From Patescibacteria group bacterium (GTDB taxonomy: Bacteria > Patescibacteriota > Microgenomatia > UBA10105 > UBA927): a DNA stretch of 64,000 bases. Of this stretch, positions 21,504 to 54,875 are shown piece after piece. Every line of letters begins with the position of its first letter. Within the stretch, counting starts at the first letter, position 1. The position numbers were made by a program, and so were the translations under genes. The notes below the pieces were generated by a model. It ran no database searches, was not told the origin of the DNA, and was given only the letters and a program-made list of their open reading frames with translations. The DNA is taken from NCBI GenBank assembly GCA_035510735.1, contig DATKGN010000008.1, positions 12,466-76,465 on the forward strand, read 5' to 3'.

Positions 21504-21521
21504 TTGACGGCCTTATTATAT

Positions 21522-30422
<8,901 letters not shown>

Positions 30423-30550: not shown

Positions 30551-31069
30551 TTAATCAGCGCACAATGTATAGTCGGAAGTGGTCAAAGCCGGGTTTGCTG
30601 ATTTACAGGAATCTGCACATTTTGCCTGAGATGCCGTGATATCGGTGTCTGATGCATTATCCAACGTTGCCCAGAGGCAAAAATCATCGCGTGCAACACC
30701 CACCGGCTGATAATGCCATACATAAGAGGCTGCCTGAGGCAAAAGTTTCATATACACATTTGTTCCTGCCGCAAACTCACCGGAATTACAGCTTGCAATT
30801 GGTGGTGTTGCATTACCGCATCCATCCAAATCGTTAGTCGTTGCATCCGGCGGGTAGATATTAAAATCGTTATAATACAGTCTGAGTGCTGTTTTGAGCT
30901 CCTGTAGTTCGGATTTCTTTTTAACGTCTTTCGCCCGCTGCCTGGCTCCCAAATAATTTGTGACCGCAAATGCTATGAGTACGGCGATAATGGCAATCAC
31001 AACAAGAAGTTCAATAAGCGTAAAGCCGCGTTCAAATCTACTGGTTATCCTATTTCGAATATTTTTCAT
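30551..31069 (-). CDS. prepilin-type (type IV pilin / pseudopilin-like) protein
   Basis: N-terminal GFTLIELLVVIAIIAVL class III signal/methylation motif followed by ELQELK...YYND helix. Confidence 0.75.
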   Translation of the reverse strand: MKNIRNRITSRFERGFTLIELLVVIAIIAVLIAFAVTNYLGARQRAKDVKKKSELQELKTALRLYYNDFNIYPPDATTNDLDGCGNATPPIASCNSGEFAAGTNVYMKLLPQAASYVWHYQPVGVARDDFCLWATLDNASDTDITASQAKCADSCKSANPALTTSDYTLCAD

Positions 31070-31092
31070 TTATTGTGGTCCCACTTGTTACT

Positions 31093-31608
31093 TTACAGGG
31101 GTGTGTTACTGCTTGCAATACCATACATACACTCTGCCCCGCCGCCGCAATTGGTGTTCGCGTAGCCCGTGATTTTGACCCCTTTATCCGTATCCATTGT
31201 ATTTTCGATGGTCGAATAGATTTTATAATAGCTCCCATCCAGAGAATCATAATAATAGGCTTCGCCTGGCTGTGGATCCGTTGGCAGCGCGAGCATATAG
31301 ATAGTCTCAGGAGATGCCAAGAGATCACTCCATTTTTTCCCCCATGTACAGTCACTGATGCTTCCGGATCCTAAAATACACCCTTTAATCTGGCCTGCAT
31401 CACCGAGCGGATATTTTCCCTTATCGTTATAATATGTTTCCAACGCCTGGGCAACCTGTCCTAAATCGCTTTTACGCCGGCTGTCTCTGGATTTTTTCAC
31501 CGACGAAATGAAGCTTCCCACACCCGCAACGATCAGCATTCCAAGAAGAGCAATGACAATTAATAACTCTATTAACGTAAATCCGTTTCGTCGTGTATGT
31601 CTTTTCAT
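31093..31608 (-). CDS. prepilin-type (type IV pilin-like) protein
   Basis: GFTLIELLIVIALLGML motif; start set at MKRHTRRNGFTLIELL preceded by GGGAGG RBS. Confidence 0.75.
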   Translation of the reverse strand: MKRHTRRNGFTLIELLIVIALLGMLIVAGVGSFISSVKKSRDSRRKSDLGQVAQALETYYNDKGKYPLGDAGQIKGCILGSGSISDCTWGKKWSDLLASPETIYMLALPTDPQPGEAYYYDSLDGSYYKIYSTIENTMDTDKGVKITGYANTNCGGGAECMYGIASSNTPL

Positions 31609-31628
31609 TGTAACAAGTCCTCCCCGTG

Positions 31629-32309
31629 CTAATGCAGGCACCGGTTCGCCGGATTTCCACATTGATTCACACCATTATATATACATCCGAAGCCGTAACG
31701 GAATGGGCAACCTGCAGCATCGGGGTCTGCATAATTATTGCAATCTCCGGCTTTCGTACACTCCCATTGACCACCGGACGGAGGTGTAGGCGTCGGAACA
31801 TTGGTGGGCGTCGGCGTCGGCGTGCCTGTGGGGGCCCCCGGAATAAAATTCGGGGCAACGACATCTGACCCCATGGCAACGCAATAATTATATCCTACTC
31901 CCCACCCGCACCCCTGTACGGGATCACACCCGATCCGGGTAATATCCGGATCGCTCAAATCCTCCAATTTTGCACAAACATGATAGCCGTCGCAAGCCGT
32001 TGGCGTTCCCGCAACATATAGATAGGGTCCGTTATTGCCGGGATCGCAGGGTACCCTCGGAATATATGGGGCAAGACCGGGTCCTCCGCAGCTCGTGAGA
32101 GGAGATGAAGCGTAATAACAGGCTTTATCATTGTAATATTCTTCAAACGCCTTCTGAATCTTCTCAAGATCGGTTTTTCTCTGCGTATCACGGCCTTTGG
32201 CGAATTGATTCCGGAGATTCATAAGAAGGATAAGGAGCAAGAGGACAAGAAGAGCTATCACGATAAGAAGTTCCATGAGGGTAAATCCGCGATCATTTCG
32301 CTTGCTCAT
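31629..32309 (-). CDS. prepilin-type (type IV pilin-like) protein with Cys-rich, TPTPTP-linker C-terminal domain
   Basis: GFTLMELLIVIALLVLL motif; C-terminal region with 12+ Cys and TGTPTPTPTNVPTPTPP linker. Confidence 0.7.
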   Translation of the reverse strand: MSKRNDRGFTLMELLIVIALLVLLLLILLMNLRNQFAKGRDTQRKTDLEKIQKAFEEYYNDKACYYASSPLTSCGGPGLAPYIPRVPCDPGNNGPYLYVAGTPTACDGYHVCAKLEDLSDPDITRIGCDPVQGCGWGVGYNYCVAMGSDVVAPNFIPGAPTGTPTPTPTNVPTPTPPSGGQWECTKAGDCNNYADPDAAGCPFRYGFGCIYNGVNQCGNPANRCLH

Positions 32310-32376
32310 CGGGGTCAGGAATCTCATATATCAGGTATAATCAGTATGGCAAGACACCAAACAAAAAGCAACCAAT

Positions 32377-33093
32377 ATGGAATCAAAAACATACGGGGAA
32401 ATGTATCAATTAGAGCAAACGTACTTCTGGTTTGTGGGCAAACAGGCATTTATAAGGAACGTGCTCTCAACGTTGCCGCAAAAACATCGGGAGATCCTTG
32501 ATGTGGGCTGCGGAACAGGAGGAACAACAAAGTGTTTAATGGAATTCGGTCGGGTTACTGCGCTTGAAAAAAATCCGGATGCCGCACGATTTGCCCGGTC
32601 GCGGGGAATAAAGGTTGTAGAGGGCAACGCCAATCACCTGCCGTTTCCATCGGAATCGTTTGACCTCACGACATTTATTGACGTTCTGTACCACATAGGG
32701 ATATCAGAACCCAAAGCCCTGTCTGAAGCATTCAGGATCTTATCGCCCCACGGGTATCTTCTTATCACAGATTGTGCCGGCCCGGCATTATTTGGTCCGC
32801 ATGATATCACAATGGATGCAAAATACAGATATACAAAAAATCAACTCGAATCGATGGTCACTCAGGCTGGGTTTCAGATTGATGTGTCAAGATATATATA
32901 CACTTCAGTGTTCCCGCTATTTGCCTTCTCACGAATTCTGGCTAAAATATATCCCAGGCCGTCTACCATACCGCGTTTCCCAAAATTTCTTAATTCTATC
33001 TTTACGGGCATGCTCCGACTGGAAGGACTATTTTCCCCTAAAATTCCGGCACCATTCGGTTCTTCAATTCTCATACTCGCACACAAATCATAG
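32377..33093 (+). CDS. class I SAM-dependent methyltransferase
   Basis: ILDVGCGTGG motif I, Methyltransf_11-like layout. Confidence 0.7.
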   Translation: MESKTYGEMYQLEQTYFWFVGKQAFIRNVLSTLPQKHREILDVGCGTGGTTKCLMEFGRVTALEKNPDAARFARSRGIKVVEGNANHLPFPSESFDLTTFIDVLYHIGISEPKALSEAFRILSPHGYLLITDCAGPALFGPHDITMDAKYRYTKNQLESMVTQAGFQIDVSRYIYTSVFPLFAFSRILAKIYPRPSTIPRFPKFLNSIFTGMLRLEGLFSPKIPAPFGSSILILAHKS

Positions 33094-33246: not shown

Positions 33247-35235
33247 ATGATAAACACTGTGAAACACATCAACCCTTTATCGTCCGCTATTGCAAGATGG
33301 ATCATCGGTATATCATTAGCAGGACTTCCGCTTTTCTTTTTACCGGTAACTCAGGAGTTCTATGACACAAACAAATGGATGCTTCTGTCATGTCTCACGC
33401 TATTCATTATTATCTCCTGGCTATACCAAAGCCTCAGACGAAATACCGCGACATTCTCTCTTACGCCAATAACGACCGGACTTGGCGCCATCACAATCAC
33501 ATCGCTCTTCAGCCTTATTTTTGCCTCAACCAACAGAGTTGAGGCGCTGTTAAGCCCCTTCGGGCCTATCACATTTTTTAATCTGACCGTAATTTCGCTT
33601 TTGCTTCCCTCATTATTTGATCATAAACAGGTCACAAAGATCATATGGCCGCTGTTCGTAAGTACTACCATCCTTGCGCTTCTTTCCATCTACCAACTCT
33701 TCGGATTAGGCAAAGTCATGTTCCCGCAGGTTAGCTACCTTGCCGATCCCCTCTGGACGCCATCAGGCGCTTCAGTTGCGACAATCTCTCTTTTTGTACT
33801 GTTGTTACCCCTTCTTTTCCGGTTTATTAATGATGCCCATAAAGATAAACAGGAGACACCAATGTCACTTCTGGCGCTCATGTCTTTTATCTGCGTCGTG
33901 GGCGTTGGCGCCATAGTGTGGCAGCTCATACCGCGAATAAATGGTACGCTTCTTTCACTTCGTGACGGATGGGGCATTATGCTTGAAATCCTCAAAAACC
34001 CCAAACAAGCACTTGTGGGAGTCGGCGCAGAAAACTTTCTCGCAGCTTTCACCGCGGGGCGGTCTTCACTTATGAATTCTTCTCCGCTGTGGAGCCTCAG
34101 ATTTACCACAAATGCCAACATGCTCCTTCATATCGCAACAATTTACGGCCTTCTCGGGCTGGCAGCTATGATATTGTATATGAAAAACAGCATGACACAG
34201 GCCAAGAAAAGCGTATTCGGGGTTAGCATATTCGTGGGAATCGCTCTCTTTCTGTTGACTCCGCCGAATATAAGTGTTCTCGTTGTTATTGTGCTCCTCA
34301 CGATCCTTGCAGCGTTAGGAAAAAATCAAAAAACACTACACATCGCACACAAAAATATCTTTATCCGGGGCGCTATCTGTTTTGCAACCGTTATCCTGAT
34401 CGGCGCCGCTCTCATGGGAATTGTGCGATCATATAATGCCGAGCTTCTTTTCTATTCATCACTCCAATATGCCCAGGCGAATAATGGCAGCGCAACGTAT
34501 AATACTCAGATTCTCACGATCCGGACAAATCCGTATATAAGCCGGTATCACATTATATTTAGTCAAACAAATCTGGCGCTTGCGGCGTCACTGGCCAACT
34601 CTATTCGCGCCAATACAACGCCTCAAACAAAAGGATTAGCAGACACGACGACAAAGGACCGCCAGCTTGTTGCACAACTATTACAGCAGGCAATCAACGA
34701 AGCAAAGAAGGCAGTAGCGCTTGATCCCGTAAACATCTTATCATGGGAAAATCTCGCAAGAACCTATCAACAGCTCATCGGAGTCGCGCAGGGCGCAGAC
34801 AACTGGACGGTAGCGTCCTATAATCAGGCAATACAACTCGATCCCACCAATCCTGTTCTCTATGTCGACCTAGGAACTGTATTTATGTCAATCAATAATT
34901 ACACGACTGCGATAACGGAATTCCAACGTGCAATTGCACTTAAATCCGATTATGCAAATGCTTACTATAATCTGGCTAATGCCTACAAATCGAACAATGA
35001 TATTACCCAGGCAATAGCAACGATAAAACAAGTTCTTCCACTCATCGACAAGTCATCAGATGATTACAAAGTCATAAACCAAACGTTAAGTGATTATGGA
35101 AAAGAGGCTTCGGGGTCGTCGACAGTAAGCTCCGCGACATACAATACCCTGCCCTCAGCGACTATTCAGCCAAAGCCTATCACCCTGCCTACTGTAACGC
35201 TCCCCGCCAAGTCCACCAACCAAGTAACCAAGTAA
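33247..35235 (+). CDS. polytopic membrane protein with C-terminal TPR repeats (O-antigen ligase / O-oligosaccharyltransferase-like architecture)
   Basis: ~12 predicted TM segments in first ~420 aa; C-terminal TPR-like repeats (AWENLARTYQQL..., YNLANAYKSNND...). Confidence 0.45.
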   Translation: MINTVKHINPLSSAIARWIIGISLAGLPLFFLPVTQEFYDTNKWMLLSCLTLFIIISWLYQSLRRNTATFSLTPITTGLGAITITSLFSLIFASTNRVEALLSPFGPITFFNLTVISLLLPSLFDHKQVTKIIWPLFVSTTILALLSIYQLFGLGKVMFPQVSYLADPLWTPSGASVATISLFVLLLPLLFRFINDAHKDKQETPMSLLALMSFICVVGVGAIVWQLIPRINGTLLSLRDGWGIMLEILKNPKQALVGVGAENFLAAFTAGRSSLMNSSPLWSLRFTTNANMLLHIATIYGLLGLAAMILYMKNSMTQAKKSVFGVSIFVGIALFLLTPPNISVLVVIVLLTILAALGKNQKTLHIAHKNIFIRGAICFATVILIGAALMGIVRSYNAELLFYSSLQYAQANNGSATYNTQILTIRTNPYISRYHIIFSQTNLALAASLANSIRANTTPQTKGLADTTTKDRQLVAQLLQQAINEAKKAVALDPVNILSWENLARTYQQLIGVAQGADNWTVASYNQAIQLDPTNPVLYVDLGTVFMSINNYTTAITEFQRAIALKSDYANAYYNLANAYKSNNDITQAIATIKQVLPLIDKSSDDYKVINQTLSDYGKEASGSSTVSSATYNTLPSATIQPKPITLPTVTLPAKSTNQVTK

Positions 35236-35243: not shown

Positions 35244-36935
35244 CTATTCTTTTTTCCGAAACACCCAGGCGAAAATCGCCCCCTGCCGCGTCACAGAATA
35301 GACCGGCACATAAGCCCCACCGAGTGTTGCTACAAACTCTTTTTCCGAAAAGTGAGAGGATTTATTCACGAGCACTATGCTATCGGCTTCACCGGAATTA
35401 TAGACATATTGATCGCCGGCTTTGAGATAATACCATGATAAATGTCCTGCAATCGGGACCCAAACGCGTGACGGCGGATAATTTGCATCCAGATACTGCA
35501 TTGCTTCGTGTACTGATAACGCCTCTATATCCCGATCATATTGTATATTGGGATTGACCGCAAAAGCGTTAAAATATCCCGATGAATACGGAACATAGTT
35601 GATATCAATAAATATGAGGTAACCAATAATCGTTAACAAAGTAACAAAGTAACAACATAACAACGTAACCCTGTAATCGGGTAACAAAGGGACAAAGAAT
35701 TTCTTGTGAAGAACATGTACAAAAACCTCAACGCCAAGTGCTGCAAGCAGCATGAGCGGCGGCAGAACTTCCATAAAATGCCGTATTCCGTCATAAAATG
35801 CGGCGCTTGGCATAATGGCGCGGGCCAAAGGAATAAGTATCCACAAAAACAGAAGAAGGGGCATCCGATTCCCAGGATTTTTCTGAAAAATTGCCGCTGC
35901 ACCCTGGAGGAGCCCTAACCCAATCGCAAAAAGGACGACAATCGGCGTTGCCAGAAAAAGATTTGCCCACGGATACCACCATAATGACCTCCCTACTCCC
36001 ACTTGATACAGTGTTCCGTTCCAAAAAATCTGATACCCTTGGCCCACGGTCGTAAAATACCGCACGACTTCGACAATGCGGTGTGTAGGATCAAACCAGA
36101 GATACGGCCACACGATAAACGCAACGGCAAATCCGATAACCATATAGATAATAATGGTTCCTGCGGCGGCAACGAACGGTTTAACGTGAACACTGTTCTT
36201 GGGATTATGCTTAACAAACTCAAGTAAACCGGTACACACGACCCAAATACCTGCAATAACCGGCACATATACCGCATTAAACTTGGTCGCAAGTGCCAAA
36301 CCCCATACAATGGCTCCAATAATCGTGCATGGGTTTGCCGTTTCGGGAGGACGTCTCTCCGACATTCCGGTCAACAAGCTTCGCAGTAATAAATACAGAC
36401 TTAGCGTAAAGAGTGCCACCTGGGCGGTATCTTTGAGGTCTGATAGCCCGTGCCCGAACATAGTGGGGTAAAGGAAAATAGCAAGTGCCGCAAACAGCCG
36501 GACCGCAATTGATAACCCCAAAAGTTCCCCGAATGCATAGACGGTAACGACAAGGATCGCAAAGAAAAAAACCGTGGCAATATGAAATGCGATAATGACA
36601 TTCGGCCCGGTCATCGGCATGCCGAATCTAGCGGCAATGACAGCAAACGCGGTGCCTATATAATTCGGAACCGGCGGATAACGTGCAAGGTCGTGCTCTT
36701 GTGTATAAATAATGTTACCGAATATTGATGCTCCCGCGTCCTTTTGTGTGAGAATCGAAGGCTTGAACCCTGATTGGAAAAAATTCCAATATTGGCCACC
36801 TGAAAATATATTATCCGGCTCATCCCACGCAGGACCGATTGAAGGCGCAAGCGTTATCCCGACAAAAATGACTAATAAGAATAAACATATGGGAATAAAT
36901 ATTTTCGTGAACGGGTGATGCACTTTACTATTCAT
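35244..36935 (-). CDS. GT-C family membrane glycosyltransferase (ArnT/PMT-like)
   Basis: Polytopic; first extracytoplasmic loop PAWDEPDNIF (DE motif) typical of GT-C enzymes using polyprenyl-phosphate sugars. Confidence 0.55.
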   Translation of the reverse strand: MNSKVHHPFTKIFIPICLFLLVIFVGITLAPSIGPAWDEPDNIFSGGQYWNFFQSGFKPSILTQKDAGASIFGNIIYTQEHDLARYPPVPNYIGTAFAVIAARFGMPMTGPNVIIAFHIATVFFFAILVVTVYAFGELLGLSIAVRLFAALAIFLYPTMFGHGLSDLKDTAQVALFTLSLYLLLRSLLTGMSERRPPETANPCTIIGAIVWGLALATKFNAVYVPVIAGIWVVCTGLLEFVKHNPKNSVHVKPFVAAAGTIIIYMVIGFAVAFIVWPYLWFDPTHRIVEVVRYFTTVGQGYQIFWNGTLYQVGVGRSLWWYPWANLFLATPIVVLFAIGLGLLQGAAAIFQKNPGNRMPLLLFLWILIPLARAIMPSAAFYDGIRHFMEVLPPLMLLAALGVEVFVHVLHKKFFVPLLPDYRVTLLCCYFVTLLTIIGYLIFIDINYVPYSSGYFNAFAVNPNIQYDRDIEALSVHEAMQYLDANYPPSRVWVPIAGHLSWYYLKAGDQYVYNSGEADSIVLVNKSSHFSEKEFVATLGGAYVPVYSVTRQGAIFAWVFRKKE

Positions 36936-36944: not shown

Positions 36945-37940
36945 TCATACCACGGAGGTGCGCTGTTTGAGGCTGTAATACAATGATCCCGAGAGGATAA
37001 TGCAATAAAGAATAAGTCCCATGGCGAGCGCTTTTCCCATGAATACCATCCCCTTCTCCCGGTAGACAAACCGGAAAAATTTTTGGAGTAGGAACGTGTG
37101 AATTGCCAATAATATCAAAGCGAAAAGCAAAAATGATGACTTCACAAACGGAAGCGGGACGAAAAAAAATAGTACGATTCCCAAAACAAATGACCCGATT
37201 GCCCCAACACCGGTTGCTGCGGCCATACTTTCCCAAACGGTTGTTGCAACCGGATCAAATTTCCGCCGTTCACGGTAGAGCTTTGTCCAATAAAAACTCC
37301 GCCAGAAATATTTCTTGGCAACGGGCCAAAATCCTTCAAATTCGTGGTGAACACGCACGTCTGGGGCAAAGATGATCGCATAGCGCTTAGCAATGCGATA
37401 CGTAAGCTCGACATCCTCCATCTGCCTAAACGCTTCGTTAAATCCGCCCAGTCGCAGAAACACTTCGCGGCGGATGGCGGCAATACGGGTACTAAATAAG
37501 TAATAATACCCGTCACGATCGCGCTCATTGGTCCAGTAACTCCAGTCCCGGAGGGCCTTAAATTGGGGAAAAAAATCATCGGTTTTCTGATGTTTATCCC
37601 ACACGCCGGTGATGGCGGTTAAATCGTGATCTTCTTTAAATTTTCCTGCAATTTTTGCGAGAGTGTCAGGATAGACGGTCACATCACTATCAAGAAATAC
37701 AAGCACTTCGCCGTGTGCCCGTTTCGCCGCGGCATTTCGTGCCGCCGCCGGCCCTTTATTGCGCGTCAACCGGACAATCTTGACGCCACGCCCGACGAAA
37801 TATTGTTCGTTAGACGCATCATCACCGACGATCACTTCAAACTGTTTATATGTTGATTTTGTAAGCGAAGCCAAAAGCCTCGTAAGCGAAACGCTCGCAT
37901 TGTAAGCAGGGATAATGATGGATAAATACGGCCTTCTCAT
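36945..37940 (-). CDS. family 2 glycosyltransferase
   Basis: LSIIIPAYNAS ... VGDDASNE ... DSDV (DxD) GT-A motifs. Confidence 0.7.
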   Translation of the reverse strand: MRRPYLSIIIPAYNASVSLTRLLASLTKSTYKQFEVIVGDDASNEQYFVGRGVKIVRLTRNKGPAAARNAAAKRAHGEVLVFLDSDVTVYPDTLAKIAGKFKEDHDLTAITGVWDKHQKTDDFFPQFKALRDWSYWTNERDRDGYYYLFSTRIAAIRREVFLRLGGFNEAFRQMEDVELTYRIAKRYAIIFAPDVRVHHEFEGFWPVAKKYFWRSFYWTKLYRERRKFDPVATTVWESMAAATGVGAIGSFVLGIVLFFFVPLPFVKSSFLLFALILLAIHTFLLQKFFRFVYREKGMVFMGKALAMGLILYCIILSGSLYYSLKQRTSVV

Positions 37941-37974
37941 GGCGTATGTGTTTGTATACCGTTCAACTCATTTC

Positions 37975-38262
37975 GTCAAGAAGTAAGCGTGTATTCGCGC
38001 TTTGCTCACCCGCGCGATTTCCGGCGCTCTCGTCAACGCTTAGCTATTTCGTAATGCAAGTTGGACTAATTACGAAGGAGCCAACAACATTGAGTCCGGA
38101 TTCACTTTGCGAGTGAGGGTATCTTGATAGTATAAAAGCCATATTTCATGAGAGAAACTGAAGCCCGGATCTCAATGTTCGTTGGCGACAAAAGCGTAAT
38201 CAGATGTTGTAGTCCCGCGCGGGTGACGGTGCTGCAAATTGTGCGTATTCGCCGCGCGAATA
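37975..38262. repeat. ~290 bp nested imperfect inverted-repeat element (MITE-like or structured RNA) in intergenic gap
   Basis: Outer arms GTATTCGCGC...TCACCCGCGCG vs CGCGCGGGTGAC...GCGCGAATAC; inner arms ATTACG...CCAACAACATTGAGTCCGG vs CCGGATCTCAATGTTCGTTGG...CGTAAT. Confidence 0.5.
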
Positions 38263-38265
38263 CTA

Positions 38266-39168
38266 CTACTTTCTTGCAAATGCAATCATGTCGTCCCAAG
38301 GGTTTATTGGATTTTTGATGTCAAAGTGATCGAATAATTTGCCGAGCGGTTTTAATATCCAAGCAGCCCAGGGGAAATAATCTGCGCCTCTCGTGAAGGC
38401 AAAAGACAAAGGAAACGGGCGCGGACTATCTCTATGGATTTCAATGTCATGAAACCCGGCTTTTTCCAAAAGCATCCGTATAGAATTGAAATCCAGTAGG
38501 ACCACATGCTCCGGGTGGGCAAACCCAAACCAACGCTTCCCCATCACCTTTCTCCAAAATCCGCCGTAATTCGGTGTCGCTAAAATAGCCATTCCGTTAT
38601 CTTTGAGTAACGAATGTATTCTTATCATCATTTTTAGCGGGTCCCGCTCGTGTTCAACGATCTGAAATGCCGTAATTACATCATACGATTGCTTCCTTAG
38701 TTGTTTGACCGTATAGACGGTCCCGTAAAACGCGGTAAGGTTATGTTTCCGACAGTAATTGACTGCATCGCGGGATAAATCGATCCCCTCACTCCTCCAC
38801 CCCACTTTTTTCGCCTCCTCCAAAAGCACTCCGGTGAGACATCCGATATCAAGAAGAGAAAATGGATGATGGACGATAGAAGATAGACTCCCGGTTTTAT
38901 CCACCTTCCATTTTCTATCTTCCATCTTCTCCTTTATATCCTCTATTTTCTGTTTGAAATACGCGTGGTGAACGCTTAGTTGCTCGATATACGGCGCAAA
39001 ATGATCAAAATCCTCATGGTACAAACCCGCAATTTGCGAGGCTGTCAGCATCGGAACAACCTGAACTAACCCACAGGTCTGACACTTTCCCATCTTCAAA
39101 TTCCCGTGATGGGTAAATAATATGGTAAATTCCCTCCCCTGACACACGACACATTTTTTCGTTTTCAT
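38266..39168 (-). CDS. SAM-dependent methyltransferase with N-terminal Cys4 zinc-ribbon
   Basis: CVVCQG...CQTCG ribbon; LLDIGCLTGVLL motif I. Confidence 0.65.
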   Translation of the reverse strand: MKTKKCVVCQGREFTILFTHHGNLKMGKCQTCGLVQVVPMLTASQIAGLYHEDFDHFAPYIEQLSVHHAYFKQKIEDIKEKMEDRKWKVDKTGSLSSIVHHPFSLLDIGCLTGVLLEEAKKVGWRSEGIDLSRDAVNYCRKHNLTAFYGTVYTVKQLRKQSYDVITAFQIVEHERDPLKMMIRIHSLLKDNGMAILATPNYGGFWRKVMGKRWFGFAHPEHVVLLDFNSIRMLLEKAGFHDIEIHRDSPRPFPLSFAFTRGADYFPWAAWILKPLGKLFDHFDIKNPINPWDDMIAFARK

Positions 39169-39178
39169 TGTTAATTGG

Positions 39179-39934
39179 TTAATTGGTTACTTTGTTTATT
39201 GGTCTATTATACACTCCGCACAAATCATTGAGGCGGATCCGGAATAGATCTATGAACGATCCGATACCATCGAGCGGCCGGACTTTACTTCCAGACTTAT
39301 TTGACCACCCGACCGGCATCTCATAAACAGGAATCTTAAACTTTCGGGCCAGATAAATAAGCTCCGTATCAAAAACCCATCGGTTAATCCTGAGCCGTGG
39401 GAACAATATATTTGCCGTTTGACGCGTAAAACCTTTGAAACCGCAGGTAACGTCGGCAACCTGAGTAGTACACATCATATTTGAAAGTTCAGTAAATAAG
39501 CGTCCAGCCGACTCCCGTAACCACGGCTGATGGACAATAATGGCGGAATGGGAAAGTCTCCGGGATGCAATCACCAGTTTTTTCGTCTTCAACAACCGAA
39601 GCATCGTTTGGACCTCTGAAATGGGCACAGAAAGGTCGATATCGGAAAATACTATGTACTTCCCATGGGCGGCTACGACTCCTTCTCTTATCGCCCTCCC
39701 CTTCCCCATGTTGTGGGGCAATCGAAGCGAGATAACGCGCTTCAAATCTTTGGCCTTAAGGTGTGTCAGCAGGGGGTTATCGGATCCGTCATCGATAAGA
39801 ATAACTTCCCAGGTGTACGGCTGCCGCTTAAGGAACGACAATACCGACCGTAAACCGCTTTTTAACCGGACGGTTTCGTTATAGACAGGGATAACAACGG
39901 AGAGGTATACCTGATTAGGGCGCTTTATAGCCAT
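39179..39934 (-). CDS. family 2 glycosyltransferase (polyprenol-phosphate glycosyltransferase / DPM1-like)
   Basis: LSVVIPVYNE ... ILIDDGSDN ... SDIDLS GT-A motifs. Confidence 0.7.
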   Translation of the reverse strand: MAIKRPNQVYLSVVIPVYNETVRLKSGLRSVLSFLKRQPYTWEVILIDDGSDNPLLTHLKAKDLKRVISLRLPHNMGKGRAIREGVVAAHGKYIVFSDIDLSVPISEVQTMLRLLKTKKLVIASRRLSHSAIIVHQPWLRESAGRLFTELSNMMCTTQVADVTCGFKGFTRQTANILFPRLRINRWVFDTELIYLARKFKIPVYEMPVGWSNKSGSKVRPLDGIGSFIDLFRIRLNDLCGVYNRPINKVTN

Positions 39935-41678
39935 AGGTTGTCAATGTTTCATTGCCGCAGCGATAACCGAAATGGGATGTATTTTTATAGACATAAAACA
40001 GGTCGGCACCCGCTCTCTGGACAAGGTAAACGGGCGTTTGCAAATCCCTGGAAAATTTGAGCGGCTCTCCAAACCACGACGGACTGTTCGGCACGAGCGT
40101 ATAGGTTGCATATTCAGGATGATCTCGCATCATCGTCACGTTCGGTGTATTGTAATACATTGTGAGATGCCGCATAAGACAACTATAGACAGAGACCGGA
40201 CCTTCGGCCTGACTGTCGATGTATTCCATTGCTTCGCGGGTCCCGCTGCCCCAATATTCAATGTCAAATAATTGTTTTTGGGCGACCGTTCTACTTCCCC
40301 CGACAAGAAAATTAAAGTAGCTTGGCTCATAGGGGTAAAACATAATGGAAATGATAATTTCATGAATAATTATGCCCGTGATAACGATCATTGTTATTAA
40401 AATTCCCGCGCGGTGAGGCGCGCGTTTTTGATCCCCGTCACGCAGATTATGGACAATCGGAGATGATAGTTTATATTGCTTGACGGATGAGAACAAAACG
40501 CGTGCCGACATAAGCGCGGTTATAAACAATGAAACTATGTATTCCACGCCAACGCCGGTAAGTAAGAAAAATGCCGGCATCACATCAATAAAATGCCGTA
40601 CCTTGGCATAAATAAGGAACCCCGGAAGTAAAAATCGCCCGATACCAAGCCAAAACCATAACAATAAAAAAAGATACCAAATATTCCGTTTTTTTATCAC
40701 TCCCCAGAGTCCGACAAGCATGCCCGTTACCGCAAAAATTGTAATCTCAATCGGCGTCTGAAAAAGGAGTATTGCGTACGGATAACTCTTCGGAAGACTT
40801 ATTCCCGCCCGATACAGATGCCCTAAATATAAAACCGGCATATTGTATCCAACGATCTTAAAAAACGCGAACACCATCTCAATTTTTTTAACGGGATTAT
40901 CCCACAACCACGGCCACGCAAGGAAAAAAATCGCGACAGCCAACAGTCCGAAGCAGGCGACGCTCAACAGGAATAAAGGGAATTGTTTCATCCGTTTACG
41001 GAACGTCTGATTTATGAAAAGACTGATAAATAACCATGGGGCCAGTATCAGCACGATTATCGCCGCAGACGGCTTTGAATCCTCAGCAAGACCCAATGTA
41101 ACCGCCCAAAGAAATCCCCATCCCCATGATTGGCTCACCCCGCGCTCTCGCCAGGAACGTAAAAACCGGAAAAAAACATAGACACTCACGATGAGCATAC
41201 TCATGAGAGGAATATCTTTTGCATCATTTCTCATCTGCCCGAATATGGTTGGATATAAGGCGAATATGAGTGTTGTTCCCGTTGCGATCGGCACAGTTAA
41301 ACCCATCTCGATCGCGAGGCCGTAAAATGCACCAACGCCAATTGATCCCAAGAGGATTTCACCGACATGATACGCATCAATAAAGTTCATAAGATGCGTC
41401 CGTTCAGCAAGAATATACGAGGCAGCGGAAGACACAAGGAATGGAAACGGCGGATACAATTCTTCACCGGAAACAAAATACATGGGGCTTGCGGCAAACC
41501 GTTTTGTATTTACATAATCAATAACGTTTGTCCAATCCAGCGTCTGCCAGAATTGAAGGTTCATGCGCCCGATAAAAAAGCTCGCAGGCTCATCCCAGGT
41601 CATACCCACCCCGCGGATAAGCGAGAGCTGAGTTACAAAAATAATGATTGCTAAAATAATACCGATATACTTTTTCAT
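39915..41678 (-). CDS. GT-C family membrane glycosyltransferase (ArnT/PMT-like)
   Basis: Polytopic 587 aa; MTWDEPASFFIG DE-loop. Confidence 0.55.
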   Translation of the reverse strand: MKKYIGIILAIIIFVTQLSLIRGVGMTWDEPASFFIGRMNLQFWQTLDWTNVIDYVNTKRFAASPMYFVSGEELYPPFPFLVSSAASYILAERTHLMNFIDAYHVGEILLGSIGVGAFYGLAIEMGLTVPIATGTTLIFALYPTIFGQMRNDAKDIPLMSMLIVSVYVFFRFLRSWRERGVSQSWGWGFLWAVTLGLAEDSKPSAAIIVLILAPWLFISLFINQTFRKRMKQFPLFLLSVACFGLLAVAIFFLAWPWLWDNPVKKIEMVFAFFKIVGYNMPVLYLGHLYRAGISLPKSYPYAILLFQTPIEITIFAVTGMLVGLWGVIKKRNIWYLFLLLWFWLGIGRFLLPGFLIYAKVRHFIDVMPAFFLLTGVGVEYIVSLFITALMSARVLFSSVKQYKLSSPIVHNLRDGDQKRAPHRAGILITMIVITGIIIHEIIISIMFYPYEPSYFNFLVGGSRTVAQKQLFDIEYWGSGTREAMEYIDSQAEGPVSVYSCLMRHLTMYYNTPNVTMMRDHPEYATYTLVPNSPSWFGEPLKFSRDLQTPVYLVQRAGADLFYVYKNTSHFGYRCGNETLTTYGYKAP

Positions 41679-41984
41679 ATTCCCTCACTTAGATTCGATC
41701 GCCGACGAAAATTTAGATCCGCCTTCAGACTCTCTCCCTTCGACTTTGCTCAGGGCAAGCGCGAAAAAGCTCGTTTACCCCGAGTCAATCGAGGGGCAAG
41801 GAGAAGCCGGACTAAATTTGTTGGCTCTCTCATCGTTACTTACCAAATGTGCTACAAAGTATCCGCGGAGAGACGCACAATTTGTCAGCACTCTCACGCA
41901 GGATGTGGCTGCAACGAGATGATATATTGTTTTGCTTGAGAGGTGCGCACAAATTGCGCGACGATCCAAGCGGATACCCAAAAT

Positions 41985-43610
41985 TCATTCGCTTCCGATT
42001 CTCTTCCATAATGCATCTCCCCACCCCGGCACCCGTGTGTAATGATCTTTAATATACGGGAAATCTGCAAGCTCCCATAACCTCCCGCTGTCTCCCTGAT
42101 AAATATACGGTACTTTCTTATCCTCTAACACCCCTCCAAGCGGCGCCGGAGGCCGTGAAAGAAACCGGACAAATTCACCGAACGGCAGACAGCAAATGTA
42201 ATATGCATCCTTCCAAAACATCATGCGGCCGTCCAGATCCAACACCTGGGATTGCGGAGGAACCATAGAGAGAAGCGTTTTGGTTTGAGAAAGCTGTACC
42301 GTATTGGACATCGAAAACTTGAGTGAGTTGACCTGTATAGCATCCTGTCCTAACAATAACGCGAAAAAGAGCAACACGATAACGACGCCGATATCTCCCG
42401 CATGACGACGAATCCACACCAATACTGACACAATGAAATCTGCCGCATACCACGCAATAAATATAGCAATAGGGATAAGATACTGGCTGTGTTTAAGCGG
42501 GAAAAAAACAACATACCCAAATACCGACAGAAAAAATATACCGCCGACGAGAAGTTCTGCGTATGTCCGTTTCCGATCCCCGCCTGCGGCGATAAACGGC
42601 GTTAAAAGTCTTAAACACCCGACCATAATACCGATAAACCAGAGCGTATGATTTGTAAGAAGCGGCCTCGTCACGCCCCATCCGCCGTAGAACGACGCAT
42701 TCGGGAAGAAAAATAAATGCGGTTCCATAATGTAAATACGGCCTATCGTGTTTGCCTCAAACGGCAGCTTGGTCAGTGAGTACCAAACGGTCGAAAAATG
42801 ACCGAGTGTGAGGAGATAAAGAAACAGTAAGACAAGCGGTGCCGCGAGTCCTGCGGCAAACATCCAATATTCCCGGGCAATCTTCCACGGAACGATCCGC
42901 TTCCGCTTAATAATGATCCCAACCCACTCAAAAAAACCGGCATCAAGAGCGGCAACCGCCACACCCATACCGACAAACGGCAGCGTTTTCACAAGAACGA
43001 CGAGTGACGCAGCGTACGAAAACCCGGCAGCCAACCATATGAGTATTCGTCGTTTATGCTCGGGGTGAAGCATACCATAAACCTGGAGCACAACCCCAAG
43101 AAGCCCCAAGAGCGCCGCGACGTTATCCGGCCGTATTTCCATATATTTATCAAACGGCATCGGCAAAAACGCGAGAATAACCATAGGGATAAGTGCGTAC
43201 CTTCTATTCCGAAGAAGCGCGAACAACACGCCGGTAAGAACAACCATAAGTGTGAATACGATAAACATGAAAACGCGTGCAGCCGTAAAGATCGCAACGC
43301 TTCTCCCAAGAATCCAAAAGAGCGGGATAAGCATCCAATAAAATCCTGGGGTGAAGAATGTGAAAAAATCAACGTACGGCTTCTGTCCCTGCGCCATATT
43401 AGCTGCCCAGTGGAGATGCGTAAATTCATCAACGTCAAAAAACCGTGTCAGACCGACCTGTAGGTGCCAATACAACAAAAACACCAATAGTCCTACTAAA
43501 ATAAGGCTCTCAAAAATGTATGCGAGAGACCGGGAATTCCACTTCATAGATTGATTGGTATAAATATATACTAGGGTCAGGGAAATAGGCAATCCACAAT
43601 TTTTCGCCAA
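41985..43610 (-). CDS. GT-C family membrane glycosyltransferase (putative)
   Basis: Polytopic 541 aa; FFDVDEFTHLHWA loop after first TM; start may be internal Met at ~43547. Confidence 0.45.
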   Translation of the reverse strand: MAKNCGLPISLTLVYIYTNQSMKWNSRSLAYIFESLILVGLLVFLLYWHLQVGLTRFFDVDEFTHLHWAANMAQGQKPYVDFFTFFTPGFYWMLIPLFWILGRSVAIFTAARVFMFIVFTLMVVLTGVLFALLRNRRYALIPMVILAFLPMPFDKYMEIRPDNVAALLGLLGVVLQVYGMLHPEHKRRILIWLAAGFSYAASLVVLVKTLPFVGMGVAVAALDAGFFEWVGIIIKRKRIVPWKIAREYWMFAAGLAAPLVLLFLYLLTLGHFSTVWYSLTKLPFEANTIGRIYIMEPHLFFFPNASFYGGWGVTRPLLTNHTLWFIGIMVGCLRLLTPFIAAGGDRKRTYAELLVGGIFFLSVFGYVVFFPLKHSQYLIPIAIFIAWYAADFIVSVLVWIRRHAGDIGVVIVLLFFALLLGQDAIQVNSLKFSMSNTVQLSQTKTLLSMVPPQSQVLDLDGRMMFWKDAYYICCLPFGEFVRFLSRPPAPLGGVLEDKKVPYIYQGDSGRLWELADFPYIKDHYTRVPGWGDALWKRIGSE

Positions 43611-44557
43611 CTCCTATCCGATAAGCCAAGCTTCTTCCGTGATTCACTCCCATCAATTGCGCAATATTTCGCGTACCGTTTTGGCAGGGAAACATGCTTT
43701 ACAAATGCATCAAACGTTGTCTTAGGCAACTTAGGATCCTTGACTCCCTTCGCCTTCGAAATCGCATACCGCGCAAGTTCAAACGGTGAAACTCCATCGA
43801 CGCTTACAACATGATATACCTCGCGGTAAGGCGCACAATTTCGAGCACCGTCACTGCGCAAAATCTGTAAACCACTCGTATATGAAGAATGCCTAAGCGC
43901 TGACGGATGCACAGTAAATTCGTGCGCCGAGCTCAGCGAGGTTATAATATTTATTATCGCGGCAGCAAGATCAGGAAGATATGTTATCGGAAATATCTGA
44001 TCGGTAAAAAGCGGATATAATTTCCCCTTGTCATACAGCCCAAGGATAGTATGAATATAATCAAAATGTTTCGTCTGATTATCTTTTGAAACCGGATGGC
44101 TCAACCTAATAATCGCACCATTGGTAACCAGCGTCTCGGCAACCGCTTTCGTCCATGCATACCAGGATAAAGATGATTGGGGCGATGTCGGATCCTCTTC
44201 TTTAAACGGACCCTGATGTGTATCATCGCCCGCAAACACCGACCCGGTTGAAATATAAATAACGTAGGCGCCAACTTTTTTGGCTGCATCGACAATATTT
44301 TTCGTCCCGTCGACATTTACCTGCCAACACCTGCCCTTTTTATCTCCCCGCTCCTCTTCTGCTGTGTCATTATCGGTAAACGCTGCAGCGTGAATAATTA
44401 CCCGTGGGGCATGGGCAGAAATCAATGCATTGACCTCTTGCTTATTCGTAATATCAAACGCATCATGTGTCGGTGCAATAATCTCTGTGTGCCGGGAAAG
44501 ACCTGCAAAAAGCTGGCTTCCGATTAAACCTGTTTTACCCGTCAATACAATAGCCAT
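43577..44557 (-). CDS. NAD(P)-dependent sugar-nucleotide reductase/epimerase (RmlD-like extended SDR)
   Basis: IVLTGKTGLIGSQL Rossmann start, DITN..., IIHAAAFTDND, YISTGSVF as in dTDP-4-dehydrorhamnose reductase family. Confidence 0.6.
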   Translation of the reverse strand: MAIVLTGKTGLIGSQLFAGLSRHTEIIAPTHDAFDITNKQEVNALISAHAPRVIIHAAAFTDNDTAEEERGDKKGRCWQVNVDGTKNIVDAAKKVGAYVIYISTGSVFAGDDTHQGPFKEEDPTSPQSSLSWYAWTKAVAETLVTNGAIIRLSHPVSKDNQTKHFDYIHTILGLYDKGKLYPLFTDQIFPITYLPDLAAAIINIITSLSSAHEFTVHPSALRHSSYTSGLQILRSDGARNCAPYREVYHVVSVDGVSPFELARYAISKAKGVKDPKLPKTTFDAFVKHVSLPKRYAKYCAIDGSESRKKLGLSDRSWRKIVDCLFP

Positions 44558-44645
44558 AACTCCTTACCTACACATTAAAAGAAGCGTGTGTTACATTTAA
44601 CTATTGATATATCAACGATCAAAAAAATAATCCTCACGTATTGCT

Positions 44646-46271
44646 ATGTCAAAAGATAGACCTTTATCACTCTTGCGTCAACACGCATTCACGATACTCT
44701 TTATCATTTTTTCGCTGTTCATTATCCGCAATGATATCGTTTACTACCGAAGCGTTTCACTGCGCGCCACACCGGATTTCTTTCCCGCCCACACTGTTGG
44801 AAATGCGGATGATTATCATCAATATATCTTTCTCATAAAAACAGGCCGCGAAGGCAAGTTGCTTTACCACAATGCGTATTCCGAAGAGCCCATACCCGAT
44901 GTTCTTCTCCAACCTATCTATAATGTCGTCGGATTGTTATCCCGACCATTTCCGGTCTCTCTGTATACTGTTTATTTCATATTTCATGTCGTATCTCTTA
45001 TTATTCTTTTTGTCAGTATATATTTACTTATCTCCCGGGTATTCAACCCGATTATACCGAAGATATTTGCCACAATTCTGTATTTTACGGCAATCGGTTT
45101 TTGGAGCATCGTGTCTTTTGCTCCGTTCCAAATCAAGAGGTATGATCTCGCGGATTATAACTTTGATCTTTTTTCAAAATTTCATGTCATCGCCCCGCAT
45201 CATAACATTGCGATTGCTCTCGTCATCCTTGTATTCATAGTGCTCACTTCCACCAAACACCACGCAGGTATTGTTGCGGGTTTGTTGAGTCTCCTATTAG
45301 GTCTCATCCACCCCTATATCCAACTCATGATGTTCTTAATGCTTTTCGCAAATGCACTCATTCAAACAATTTTGGAACGAAAACTGTTAACGCGCGCATT
45401 TAGAGATTTTTTTATTATTATCGTTATCTCATCACCGCTCATCGTCTATTATCTTTATCTCACCAATGTCATACTTCATTTTACTGTCGCTACTGACGGT
45501 ATTCTCACGTTTCTACCGAGAACAATATCGTTTCTTTCGTACCTTCAGGCGCTTGGTCCGCTTTTTATCTTTGCATTACCATCGCTCGTTTTCTTTATAT
45601 ATTCAAAACCGTATTCAATCATACGATTTCTTTTACTTTGGGCTTTTCTGCCGATTCTTCTGTTCTTTTTCCCTGATTTCCATCTGCCGTTTGCTGTATG
45701 GCGGCTCTCACAGATCTATCAGCACATTCCGCTTGCTATACTCGGTGCATATTGGGTATATATATTAATTCGGAACAAACGATTTGCTCTCTCTTTAATG
45801 ATACTCGTTGGCGGCATAACGCTCTTATATGGATTTACTGCATATAACTATGTATTCCAAGCCAGCGCAGACACCCATGATGCCGGTGGCTATATATTCA
45901 CTTACTATGTGCCGACACCAGTCATACATGCATTTACATATCTCGACCGGGAAACGCCCAGAGACTCAGTCGTTCTCGCAAGCCAGATGGTGTCAAGTAT
46001 GATTCCGTCGTTCACTCACAATCGCGTCATTATCGGACACAACGGCAATAACAGGGATTATTATCAGAAATTAGCTGAGGCTAACATGTTTTTTACCGGC
46101 ACGATGAGCTATGATGATGCCCACGCCTATCTTCTGAAACGTCATGTCTCATATATAATCTTCGGACTTGATATGCCGGGATTTACGGCAATGTCTTACG
46201 CCAATATGGGTTTTTTGAAACTCGTCTACGGGAACCCTTATGATATTTCAGTGGTGAAGGTGCTTCGATAA
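44646..46271 (+). CDS. polytopic membrane protein (possible glycosyltransferase/polymerase; unassigned)
   Basis: ~12 TM segments, C-terminal soluble domain; no diagnostic motif. Confidence 0.4.
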   Translation: MSKDRPLSLLRQHAFTILFIIFSLFIIRNDIVYYRSVSLRATPDFFPAHTVGNADDYHQYIFLIKTGREGKLLYHNAYSEEPIPDVLLQPIYNVVGLLSRPFPVSLYTVYFIFHVVSLIILFVSIYLLISRVFNPIIPKIFATILYFTAIGFWSIVSFAPFQIKRYDLADYNFDLFSKFHVIAPHHNIAIALVILVFIVLTSTKHHAGIVAGLLSLLLGLIHPYIQLMMFLMLFANALIQTILERKLLTRAFRDFFIIIVISSPLIVYYLYLTNVILHFTVATDGILTFLPRTISFLSYLQALGPLFIFALPSLVFFIYSKPYSIIRFLLLWAFLPILLFFFPDFHLPFAVWRLSQIYQHIPLAILGAYWVYILIRNKRFALSLMILVGGITLLYGFTAYNYVFQASADTHDAGGYIFTYYVPTPVIHAFTYLDRETPRDSVVLASQMVSSMIPSFTHNRVIIGHNGNNRDYYQKLAEANMFFTGTMSYDDAHAYLLKRHVSYIIFGLDMPGFTAMSYANMGFLKLVYGNPYDISVVKVLR

Positions 46272-47558: not shown

Positions 47559-47610
47559 ACGTACTATATATACATGTAGTCTTGAAAATTATCAATTCCG
47601 AACATAATCT

Positions 47611-48444
47611 ATGCAAGATCATGATGGTGGCGAAGAATCTGTTAATGTTGCCGAATATATAACGCGGATACAAGAACCCTTACCCGATAAATTAGATATC
47701 GACAATGGCATACTGATCTTTTCACCACAGTCACCAATCATTATTCAAGATGGATCGATACAAAAATCAATTAACGCATATTCCGGATTATTTATCTCGG
47801 ATGAATCTGAACGATCCGAACTTTCGCAACCTCTCATAGGTAATACTGACTTCCATGTTTTGTTTAGCGGAACACATGGTGACACATTCACAATTTCACC
47901 TGCTACTGCAGTTCATCCGTTAACGCAAGTCGTCTGTCTTGACGTTGACCATGTTCAAAGAAGAAAATTTAGCCTTCCCCATGAACTGGGGCATGCGTAT
48001 TTAAATTGGAAACATATCGGCTTACTCCTTGCGCAATCGGCATTAACAGGTCAAAACAACAAAGGCATTGCTCATCTTCCGGAAATACAAAATTATGTGT
48101 CATTCATACGTTCTGTTTGCGAAAAAAATCACGTCACTCAAATACCTACAGACGAAAACGAATTGCTTCAGCTAAGGCGACGGTCCTCCCCATTTTTTGA
48201 AGCATTAGCTGTATTTGATGAACGATACGCCTGGGGGGTCGGTCTTGCATTATCATCTCTTTATCCGGGATTTTCAACAGATTGGCTGCAGCGTGACGGG
48301 CTTGAGCAGGCAACGAAAGGTTTAATTAACTATGGATTAAAATTTAATGAACAACTATTTGTTAATGGCTTTTCTAAAGAAGATTCCATCGGAAACATAG
48401 CCTTTTTCTTTAGAAATCAATTTAGTGAAAACGCCTCGGGTTAA
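47611..48444 (+). CDS. hypothetical protein with HELGH (HExxH) motif, possible ImmA/IrrE-like metallopeptidase
   Basis: FSLPHELGHAYLNWKH. Confidence 0.35.
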   Translation: MQDHDGGEESVNVAEYITRIQEPLPDKLDIDNGILIFSPQSPIIIQDGSIQKSINAYSGLFISDESERSELSQPLIGNTDFHVLFSGTHGDTFTISPATAVHPLTQVVCLDVDHVQRRKFSLPHELGHAYLNWKHIGLLLAQSALTGQNNKGIAHLPEIQNYVSFIRSVCEKNHVTQIPTDENELLQLRRRSSPFFEALAVFDERYAWGVGLALSSLYPGFSTDWLQRDGLEQATKGLINYGLKFNEQLFVNGFSKEDSIGNIAFFFRNQFSENASG

Positions 48445-49127: not shown

Positions 49128-49214
49128 AAAATGTGGATGAAATCAATATTATAGGCTATAATCTATACAATATAGGCTCCGTATTTATGAATCCAAATCA
49201 TCTTAACCCCACAA

Positions 49215-49895: not shown

Positions 49896-49919
49896 ATATT
49901 ATTTAGAGTGATTTTTATC

Positions 49920-53594: not shown

Positions 53595-53611
53595 GTATGA
53601 ATTACACACCT

Positions 53612-53703
53612 TGTCATTGCGAGTCGAGTCTCACGAGACGCGGCAATCTCAATATAAATTATAGTGAGATCGCTTCGCCATAAGAACGGTCTCGCGATGA
53701 CAG
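53612..53703. repeat. palindromic MITE/REP-like element (copy 2 of 3)
   Basis: TGTCATTGCGAG...GGCAATC...GCTTCG...CTCGCGATGACAG. Confidence 0.65.
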
Positions 53704-53715
53704 TGCATATACCAT

Positions 53716-54762: not shown

Positions 54763-54774
54763 AGCTGGTATTCA

Positions 54775-54866: not shown

Positions 54867-54875
54867 CTGATACGC

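Follow-up and report, generated by a model that had tools for sequence, protein, structure and literature searches.

A 64,000-nucleotide stretch of the genome of a Patescibacteria group bacterium of the class Microgenomatia (contig DATKGN010000008.1; hereafter the window, to whose positions all coordinates refer) encodes on its minus strand three tandem open reading frames (ORFs), P1, P2 and P3, which we regard with little hesitation as type IV pilin paralogues carrying class III signal peptides. The third, P3, is very probably a bimodular pilin, its predicted structure comprising a cysteine-rich pilin head and a small C-terminal module joined by a Pro/Thr-rich linker. The locus as a whole is best explained, with reasonable but far from full confidence, as a conserved pilin operon with a bimodular P3 and a neighbouring WaaL-fold membrane protein (33247-35235) that would glycosylate a surface acceptor. 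That the pilins themselves could be this target is a more tentative proposal, drawn from composition and gene neighbourhood. What is new here is a variant of the modular type IV pilin together with a pilin-adjacent Wzy_C enzyme, and not a new category of either.

Type IV pili are believed to play a central part in host attachment and DNA uptake in the candidate phyla radiation (CPR, or Patescibacteria), although their subunits are uncharacterised outside Saccharibacteria. In CPR genomes type IV pili are over-represented, as are disulfide oxidoreductases whose presumed role is pilin folding (PMC6744442). Work on the saccharibacterium TM7x has characterised two pili that contain modular minor pilins; O-glycosylation is there an in silico prediction only (PMC11623550). 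A further CPR pilus, Pam (preprint 10.64898/2026.03.03.709456), was considered and set aside, as it belongs to the donor-strand-exchange pili and is not built from the pilins described here. Our literature search combining Patescibacteria, pilin and O-antigen ligase, incomplete in its coverage, found no paper linking the three. The locus defines a conserved three-pilin cassette of Microgenomatia, a new modular pilin design of 8-Cys head, Pro/Thr stalk and 6-Cys knob, and an association, seen repeatedly, of these pilins with a WaaL-fold/TPR protein and a glycan locus. If functional, this association would offer a testable way into how uncultured ultra-small bacteria glycosylate proteins and recognise hosts, and may provide a new O-oligosaccharyltransferase (O-OTase) scaffold for glyco-engineering; if not, the analysis is still a useful annotation of a widespread, ordinary pilin family.

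Three tandem type IV pilin-like genes sharing a GFTL(I/M)ELL prepilin segment had been proposed in the first-pass annotation of the window, and the profile searches bore this out. All three proteins exceed the gathering score of 21.2 bits of the PF07963 N_methyl family (individual scores in Table 1) and pass the NCBIfam model IV_pilin_GFxxxE (TIGR02532). Each starts with a short basic leader and Gly-1, followed by FTL(I/M)ELL with Glu at +5; furthermore, the three have in common the alpha1C motif RD..RK.DL..I..A...YYND and are about 30% identical to one another over the pilin module. In their leader, Gly-1, Phe+1 and Glu+5, in a long alpha1 helix followed by a small beta head (both as predicted for P3), and in a GspG-like alpha1C motif (RD..RK.DL..I..A...YY.D), they resemble the type IVa pilins and GspG-class pseudopilins, such as PilA of Pseudomonas aeruginosa, PilA4 of Thermus thermophilus and EpsG of Vibrio, from which they differ in that the globular part has no significant sequence similarity and no equivalog threshold is reached. 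Indeed, P1-P3 score far below the cut-off of the PilA equivalog, as they do for GspG, ComGC, ComGD and ComGE.

The ORF list placed the start of P2 at 31662, an upstream in-frame ATG. A ribosome-binding site, GGGGAGGA, precedes the ATG at 31608 (MKRHTRRNG/FTLIELL), which is most likely the true start, and P2 therefore does not overlap P3. Orthologues of P2 end, after the last Cys, in a Ser/Thr-rich tail, C[TM]YGI[AS]SxN[TA]xP (window 31093-31130; orthologues in loci L005-L049 of the survey described below), which could be a modification site. Promoter and terminator sites scanned in 30300-33300 were no more numerous than in shuffled sequence.

P3 runs from its leader through G/FTLMELL, the alpha1 helix and an 8-Cys head to the Pro/Thr linker and the 6-Cys C-terminal module. 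Its Cys total 14, of which 8 lie in the pilin head (residues 70-149) and 6 in the C-terminal module (190-230); more than 12 had previously been attributed to the C-terminal domain, which was a miscount, while the linker string reported for this third pilin, TGTPTPTPTNVPTPTPP, is indeed found at residues 166-182. The search for P3 homologues recovered at least 190 sequences. When the best 120 of them were aligned, each Cys proved to be conserved at 81-100%, those of the C-terminal module (Cys190, 196, 207, 215, 223 and 230) at 88-99%. The linker varies between 15 and 69 residues across the family and retains at least two ([ST]P) repeats in 96 of 104 members. Because the Cys are conserved and a Pro/Thr linker is kept in most of the family, these features are not attributable to chance.

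An AlphaFold2 model, built among the trio for P3 only and from a 104-sequence alignment, reached a predicted local distance difference test score (pLDDT) of 90.7 and consists of a 52-residue N-terminal helix (residues 17-68) and a small beta head. Confidence falls only over residues 160-185, between two parts above 90. It is these two confident segments with a low-pLDDT linker between them, together with the conservation of all 14 Cys, that make a bimodular P3 so probable. Foldseek searches with the model gave EpsG/GspG, PilA1 of Clostridioides difficile and PilA4 of T. thermophilus as best matches, and also TcpA; the E-values were weak (0.02 at best), and the matches were consistently pilins or pseudopilins. 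Similarly, the P3 family profile matched in the PDB the alpha1 helix of the major pilins of Geobacter, Thermus, Myxococcus, Pseudomonas and Neisseria, and that of PulG. For the 50-aa C-terminal module, a search of 1.84 billion representatives found no credible relative outside the pilin family: one of its two matches is a family member, and the other (P0239), an unrelated repeat protein, is spurious. A few 34-column Foldseek matches to beta-trefoil lectins, all with E above 2, were likewise discarded as noise.

On this reading, the head of P3 would be stapled by four predicted disulfides, compared with one in a typical pilin, and a flexible Pro/Thr stalk would end in a small three-disulfide module, additional to the usual pilin, projecting from the surface or the tip of the filament and probably acting as a binding or adhesion element. 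Modular type IV pilins are represented by PilB and PilC of Streptococcus sanguinis. In TM7x, PilX1 and PilX2 are modular pilins with extra C-terminal domains and are minor, tip-type subunits (PMC11623550). P3 shares with all of these a pilin module followed by an extra folded C-terminal domain of presumed binding function. It differs from them in that its module, with six Cys in about 47 aa, is very small and is not a vWA, lectin, jelly-roll or beta-propeller domain, in the long Pro/Thr-rich linker that joins it, and in that no fold relative was found for it in the searches above. The distant P3 homologues of Shapirobacteria-like genomes keep the pilin module and have a different Cys-rich tail without a Pro/Thr linker.

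Named homologues belong to Candidatus Gottesmanbacteria and, more distantly, to Shapirobacteria and Woesebacteria, all within Microgenomatia, and we place the window in a Candidatus Gottesmanbacteria genome. The contents of the window, with aminoacyl-tRNA synthetases, arginine biosynthesis, ComEA/ComEC and a large glycan locus, fit a small CPR genome. A survey restricted to one genome per species yielded 80 loci, nearly all of which keep the order P3-P2-P1. In L057, PilB (T2SSE and MshEN domains, 432 bits), PilT, PilC (T2SSF), a 239-aa pilin and PilD (A24_N_bact and Peptidase_A24) directly precede the P3-P2-P1 homologues, with further pilins after the array. About 20 further Shapirobacteria-like loci show the same pilB-pilT-pilC-pilin-pilD-P3 arrangement and contain 5-6 tandem pilins. 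Because the array of these relatives lies directly after pilB-pilT-pilC-pilin-pilD, we assign the trio to a type IV pilus and not to a type II secretion system (T2SS). The Gottesmanbacteria array has three pilins only and is detached from the machinery. In domain scans of the window proteins no PilB, PilC, PilD, secretin or Gsp genes were found; in this genome a PilD would cleave the prepilins, and a type IV pilus machine whose genes lie elsewhere would polymerise them. Two observations on the array itself may be added. The Cys-rich P3 homologue (10-16 Cys) comes first among the 5-6 tandem pilins that follow pilD in L053, L054, L057, L059, L062, L063, L072, L077 and L080, and L064 brings together a Wzy-TPR gene, P3 and pilB-pilT-pilC.

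On the other side of P3, the protein encoded by 33247-35235 consists of a polytopic membrane domain (approximately residues 1-450) and a C-terminal TPR domain (approximately 460-620). Pfam and NCBIfam searches with the whole protein returned TPR repeats only, and TPR matches also swamped the PDB results, both of a whole-protein profile search and of Foldseek. Its placement in the WaaL/Wzy_C superfamily comes from three independent lines. The membrane domain has the polytopic fold of the WaaL type, and six of the 73 full-length homologues match Wzy_C; P0079, which is 34% identical over 94% of the query, reaches 35.3 bits against a gathering score of 31.7 in the region equivalent to query residues 175-308. 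Furthermore, an hhalign comparison between a profile of 28 pilin-adjacent copies and one of the bona fide Wzy_C genes that fill this slot in other Gottesmanbacteria gave an E-value of 3.5e-5, with an alignment that spans GxGxxxF...H..L..L.E.G..G and pairs query H295 with the conserved His. Of the 73 family members, all have R or K at position 272, while 60 retain R285 and 60 retain H295. In WaaL and in the O-OTases PglS and PglL, Arg residues have been proposed to act on the pyrophosphate and a His to be catalytic, constituting a shared Arg/His active site (PMC12800693). The protein is thus O-antigen-ligase-like at the level of fold and remote homology only: the earlier designation is borne out by the fold, the family homologue P0079 and the hhalign alignment, and not by a direct Wzy_C match of the window copy. 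A lack of any Wzy_C or O-OTase similarity, named earlier as something that would refute the proposal, is therefore not what is seen, remote as the similarity is.

Compared with TfpO/PilO of P. aeruginosa and Acinetobacter, PglL of Neisseria and PglS of Acinetobacter baylyi (PMC12800693), the resemblance lies in the WaaL/Wzy_C-type polytopic fold, in conserved Arg and His that may correspond to those of their extracytoplasmic loop, and in a gene placed beside pilin genes with a glycan locus nearby. The differences are that 33247-35235 fails the Wzy_C profile and has a C-terminal TPR domain absent from those enzymes, that the host is a monoderm-like CPR bacterium, and that its pilins lack the C-terminal Ser of TfpO substrates.

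The slot upstream of P3 recurs across the survey. In the window, as in several genomes, a single methyltransferase gene separates P3 from 33247-35235, and a methyltransferase is found in the equivalent position in L001, L005, L007, L008, L010 and L049. Where at least 3.5 kb upstream of P3 were available (64 loci), a Wzy_C-type gene lies on the opposite strand within 4 kb in 29 loci, and pilD lies directly upstream in 13. The Wzy_C-type genes form two subtypes, one fused to TPR (with identity down to 23-25%) and the other a 543-aa protein without TPR. In L057 the gene that closes the pilin array encodes a Wzy_C protein of 618 aa, scoring 35.9 bits against 31.7, and in L085 a Wzy_C gene is followed by a run of glycosyltransferase genes.

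Table 1. Features of the pilin locus and its surroundings (window positions; aa, amino acids)
Feature	Position	Strand	Remarks
P1, type IV pilin	30551..31069	-	172 aa, 6 Cys; C-terminal DY[VT]xCAD conserved; N_methyl 34.8 bits
P2, type IV pilin	31093..31608	-	171 aa from corrected start, 4 Cys; N_methyl 32.7 bits
P3, bimodular (predicted) type IV pilin	31629..32327	-	232 aa; N_methyl 31.3 bits
P3, Pro/Thr-rich flexible linker	31773..31850	-	approximately residues 160-185; pLDDT 55-74
P3, C-terminal 6-Cys mini-domain	31632..31772	-	residues 186-232, about 47 aa; pLDDT 91-96
Giant membrane-anchored fibre, (GxT)n collagen-like repeats	21504..30422	+	2972 aa; convergent with the pilins
S-adenosylmethionine-dependent methyltransferase	32377..33093	+	Methyltransf_11, 5e-19; divergent from P3
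WaaL-fold (divergent Wzy_C) membrane domain and TPR	33247..35235	+	candidate O-oligosaccharyltransferase, ligase or polymerase
Polytopic divergent GT-C (PMT_2/ArnT-like) candidate	35244..36935	-	563 aa; about 9 hydrophobic segments
Glycan biosynthesis locus	36945..63966	.	Pfam scans and membrane-protein comparison

The glycan locus of some 30 kb that had been postulated downstream was recovered in the domain scans. It includes four family 2 glycosyltransferases (GT2), two DegT aminotransferases, an RmlD-like protein, an epimerase, an NTP transferase, a GNAT protein and a PMT_2 glycosyltransferase of the C fold (GT-C), and in addition a thiamine pyrophosphate (TPP) enzyme, an aldolase with acetaldehyde dehydrogenase, an ATP sulfurylase/adenosine phosphosulfate (APS) kinase for the synthesis of phosphoadenosine phosphosulfate (PAPS), and polytopic proteins. 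Wzx, Wzz, ABC exporters and initiating phosphoglycosyltransferase families were all missing from the window scans, which suggests the use of GT2/GT-C pairs working with polyprenyl-phosphate monosaccharides. The GT-C candidate next to the Wzy-TPR gene, 35244-36935, has no Pfam match of its own, and a PDB sequence search with it was also empty; many of its homologues, at 40-55% identity, carry PF13231 PMT_2. The same neighbourhood is found in L003, and in Gottesmanbacteria RBG_13_45_10 the homologue of this gene (A2Z00_03880) is, by its tag number, near the P3 homologue (A2Z00_03870).

TfpW is a GT-C arabinosyltransferase acting on group IV pilins of P. aeruginosa, and PMT-type enzymes are protein O-mannosyltransferases. 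The locus resembles these systems in having PMT_2-like GT-C proteins near pilins (35244-36935 through its homologues, and 61599-63233) alongside genes similar to GT2 polyprenyl-phosphate-sugar synthases; it differs from the TfpW system in the lack of direct homology to TfpW and of a Pfam match in 35244-36935 itself. As side observations, five polytopic membrane proteins of 540-590 aa are encoded in 35244-46271 and 61599-63233, of which only 61599-63233 matches PMT_2 directly, and 35244-36935 is 26% identical to 39915-41678. The stretch 46248-60485 contains enzymes of unusual chemistry, namely the TPP-dependent enzyme (51807-53609), a DmpG-like aldolase with acetaldehyde dehydrogenase (53716-55763), the two DegT aminotransferases, the GNAT protein and the fused ATP sulfurylase/APS kinase (58800-60485). 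Judged from these genes, the product might be an amino sugar, branched-chain and acylated, and/or a sulfated glycan.

The trio is convergent with the giant fibre gene, as had been pointed out before, the two stop codons lying 128 bp apart. Fibre homologues carry Collagen (weak) and Laminin_G_3 domains. By tblastn a giant convergent fibre was found in 19 of 29 loci, and ORF calling revealed in most of the remaining ones a minus-strand ORF of at least 1000 aa just downstream of the trio; in the majority of Gottesmanbacteria-type loci, the trio is followed by a giant ORF of convergent orientation. Collagen-like GxT repeats are classical substrates of O-glycosylation, as in BclA of the Bacillus exosporium. 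The fibre resembles such BclA-type glycoproteins in its long GxT collagen-like repeats, and differs in being anchored in the membrane at its N-terminus, in its length of about 3000 aa and in its occurrence in a CPR bacterium.

Other features of the fibre gene are of a more incidental nature. Residues 31-164 (window 21504-22400) resemble the N-terminal SAM-like domain of XerC/XerD at about 45 bits, far below the cut-offs; this region, an odd cytoplasmic anchor, is followed by a Pro/Ile-rich stretch, one transmembrane helix and then the (GxT)n repeats. The 20001-22000 bin, which spans the divergent intergenic region between the leucyl-tRNA synthetase (LeuRS) gene and the fibre gene, has a G+C content of 0.36 compared with an average of about 0.45. 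In Ca. Gottesmanbacteria RIFCSPLOWO2_01_FULL_43_11b (L004:11813-12172, minus strand), a gene for a 119-aa bAvd / 23S_rRNA_IVP protein separates the trio from the 3' end of the giant fibre gene. Since bAvd is an accessory protein of diversity-generating retroelements (DGR), this gene may point to an intact or remnant DGR targeting the C-terminus of the fibre; no bAvd gene is present in the window.

Different scenarios might account for the trio. That P1-P3 are T2SS pseudopilins seems to us hardly credible. Such an origin would agree with GspG being the best sub-threshold NCBIfam match (over residues 9-133 in P2) and with the names 'PulG' or 'type II secretion system protein' that some databases give to homologues; however, the GspG scores (TIGR01710; 45.2, 47.4 and 35.8 bits) lie far from the cut-off of 88.85, the window contains no GspD, GspE, GspF, GspL or GspM gene, the homologous arrays belong to PilT-containing operons, and CPR genomes lack the secretin PilQ and apparently a Gram-negative envelope (PMC6744442). 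The earlier preference for pilins over pseudopilins is upheld accordingly by the absence of a T2SS from the window and by the PilT of the relatives. A competence pilus taking up DNA together with ComEA (17161-17892) and a split ComEC (15162-17119), which lie 13 kb away, is improbable, although less so. In L015 and L033, too, pilins, fibre, LeuRS and ComEA follow one another in this order, and CPR bacteria are thought to rely on DNA uptake (PMC6744442), but the fibre gene of 9 kb and the LeuRS gene stand between the pilins and comEA, the ComGC, ComGD and ComGE models score 17-29 bits against cut-offs of 49-75 bits, and the weak match to ComP_DUS, limited to P2, stays at 23.6 bits below a gathering score of 27.3. 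Moreover, TM7x mutants of the non-essential pilus T4P-2 retained wild-type competence (PMC11623550). Possible, if on balance unlikely, is that P3-P2-P1 are minor pilins forming a priming or tip complex, with the major subunit encoded elsewhere and the P3 module as tip adhesin, a reading compatible with our preferred one and different from it in subunit role only. It finds support in the 2-3 further pilins that accompany the array after pilD in the relatives, in their separate 239-aa pilin between pilC and pilD, and in the minor, tip-type role of the modular pilins PilX1 and PilX2 of TM7x (PMC11623550). On the other hand, Glu5 is present in all three proteins, their best sub-threshold match is a major pseudopilin, and the P3 profile matches only major pilins in the PDB, where minor-pilin structures usually lack alpha1N.

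The question of glycosylation is more evenly contested. To our knowledge, CPR bacteria have no lipopolysaccharide (LPS). Because of this, and because no Gram-negative envelope is apparent, a WaaL-fold enzyme must ligate to an acceptor other than the lipid A core, and the most plausible activity of 33247-35235 would be to transfer onto an acceptor at the cell surface a lipid-linked glycan that the adjacent locus produces. Among possible acceptors a protein appeals most, as for PglL, TfpO and the S-layer O-OTases, and its recognition could plausibly fall to the extracytoplasmic TPR domain. Candidate acceptors are the Pro/Thr stalk of P3, the Ser/Thr tail of P2 in a TfpO/PglL-like manner, and/or the (GxT)n giant fibre. 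The suggestion of TfpO/PglL-like pilin glycosylation made in the first-pass annotation is partly supported by this context, on account of the fold, the remote homology and the conserved synteny; as with TfpO-type enzymes, a Wzy_C-type gene lies close to its putative pilin substrate in the window (where one methyltransferase gene stands between them), in 29 of 64 loci and in L057. PMT_2-like GT-C enzymes with the GT2 genes constitute an alternative, TfpW/PMT-like route.

Several results weigh against the explanation that we favour. With regard to the enzyme, PF04932 Wzy_C does not match the membrane domain of 33247-35235 even at E=10, nor any of the 28 pilin-adjacent copies taken singly; the profile of the 28 membrane domains retrieved from the PDB no WaaL sequence and only a spurious opsin match, and the hhalign probability was only 72%. 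With regard to the partnership, 22 of the 64 loci lack both a Wzy_C gene and pilD upstream of P3, among the Shapirobacteria-like operons only L057 has a Wzy_C gene after the pilins, and a gene order conserved within one class may mirror descent and not function. With regard to the pilins, P1 ends in CAD, P2 in NTPL and P3 in CLH, so that none offers the C-terminal Ser used by TfpO; the Thr-rich fibre is at least as good an acceptor; homology, whether by Foldseek or among the 1.84 billion representatives, gives no support for a function of the C-terminal module; the sequences leave P1-P3 as either major or minor subunits; and the assembly machine of the trio is assumed, as the 64-kb window has no pilB, pilC, pilD or pilMNO. 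There is accordingly some probability, though we would not favour it, that the pilins are unglycosylated and that the WaaL-fold/TPR protein, the GT-C enzymes and the glycan locus serve a cell-surface polysaccharide, through a Wzy-like polymerase or an envelope ligase, or glycosylate the very Thr-rich fibre conserved beside the trio, the Pro/Thr segment of P3 being only a flexible spacer and the clustering a conserved island of surface structures. Pro/Thr linkers occur unglycosylated too, the Wzy_C family holds polymerases, ligases and O-OTases that are indistinguishable by sequence, and most Shapirobacteria-type pilus operons do without a Wzy_C gene. What speaks against this is that, beside the trio, the Wzy_C slot is kept at identities as low as 23-25% and by two subtypes, that the Wzy_C gene of L057 lies inside the pilus operon with no giant fibre within 10 kb, and that the Wzx flippase, Wzz and an initiating phosphoglycosyltransferase family are absent from the window scans. 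The furthest-reaching form of our preferred explanation, in which a WaaL-fold enzyme, its TPR domain recognising the substrate, loads glycans of the adjacent locus onto the P3 stalk, and perhaps onto the fibre, in an undescribed system of Microgenomatia surface-protein O-glycosylation, with pili and fibre together as an attachment apparatus, is a speculative and rather unlikely one. If true, it would represent the first defined protein glycosylation pathway of the CPR and a new O-OTase architecture, and glycosylated pili and fibre would jointly constitute the attachment apparatus of ultra-small, host-dependent bacteria.

Elsewhere in the window, ComEA (SLBB and HHH_3 domains) is followed by a ComEC apparently split in two ORFs (15162-17892 in all, minus strand), with the Competence domain in 16163-17119 and the metallo-beta-lactamase domain in 15162-16073. 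The arginyl-tRNA synthetase (6100-8526, minus strand) is unusually long, with 808 aa and a catalytic domain matched in two separate stretches, and is adjoined by a stand-alone B3_4-domain protein of 246 aa (8543-9283, minus strand).

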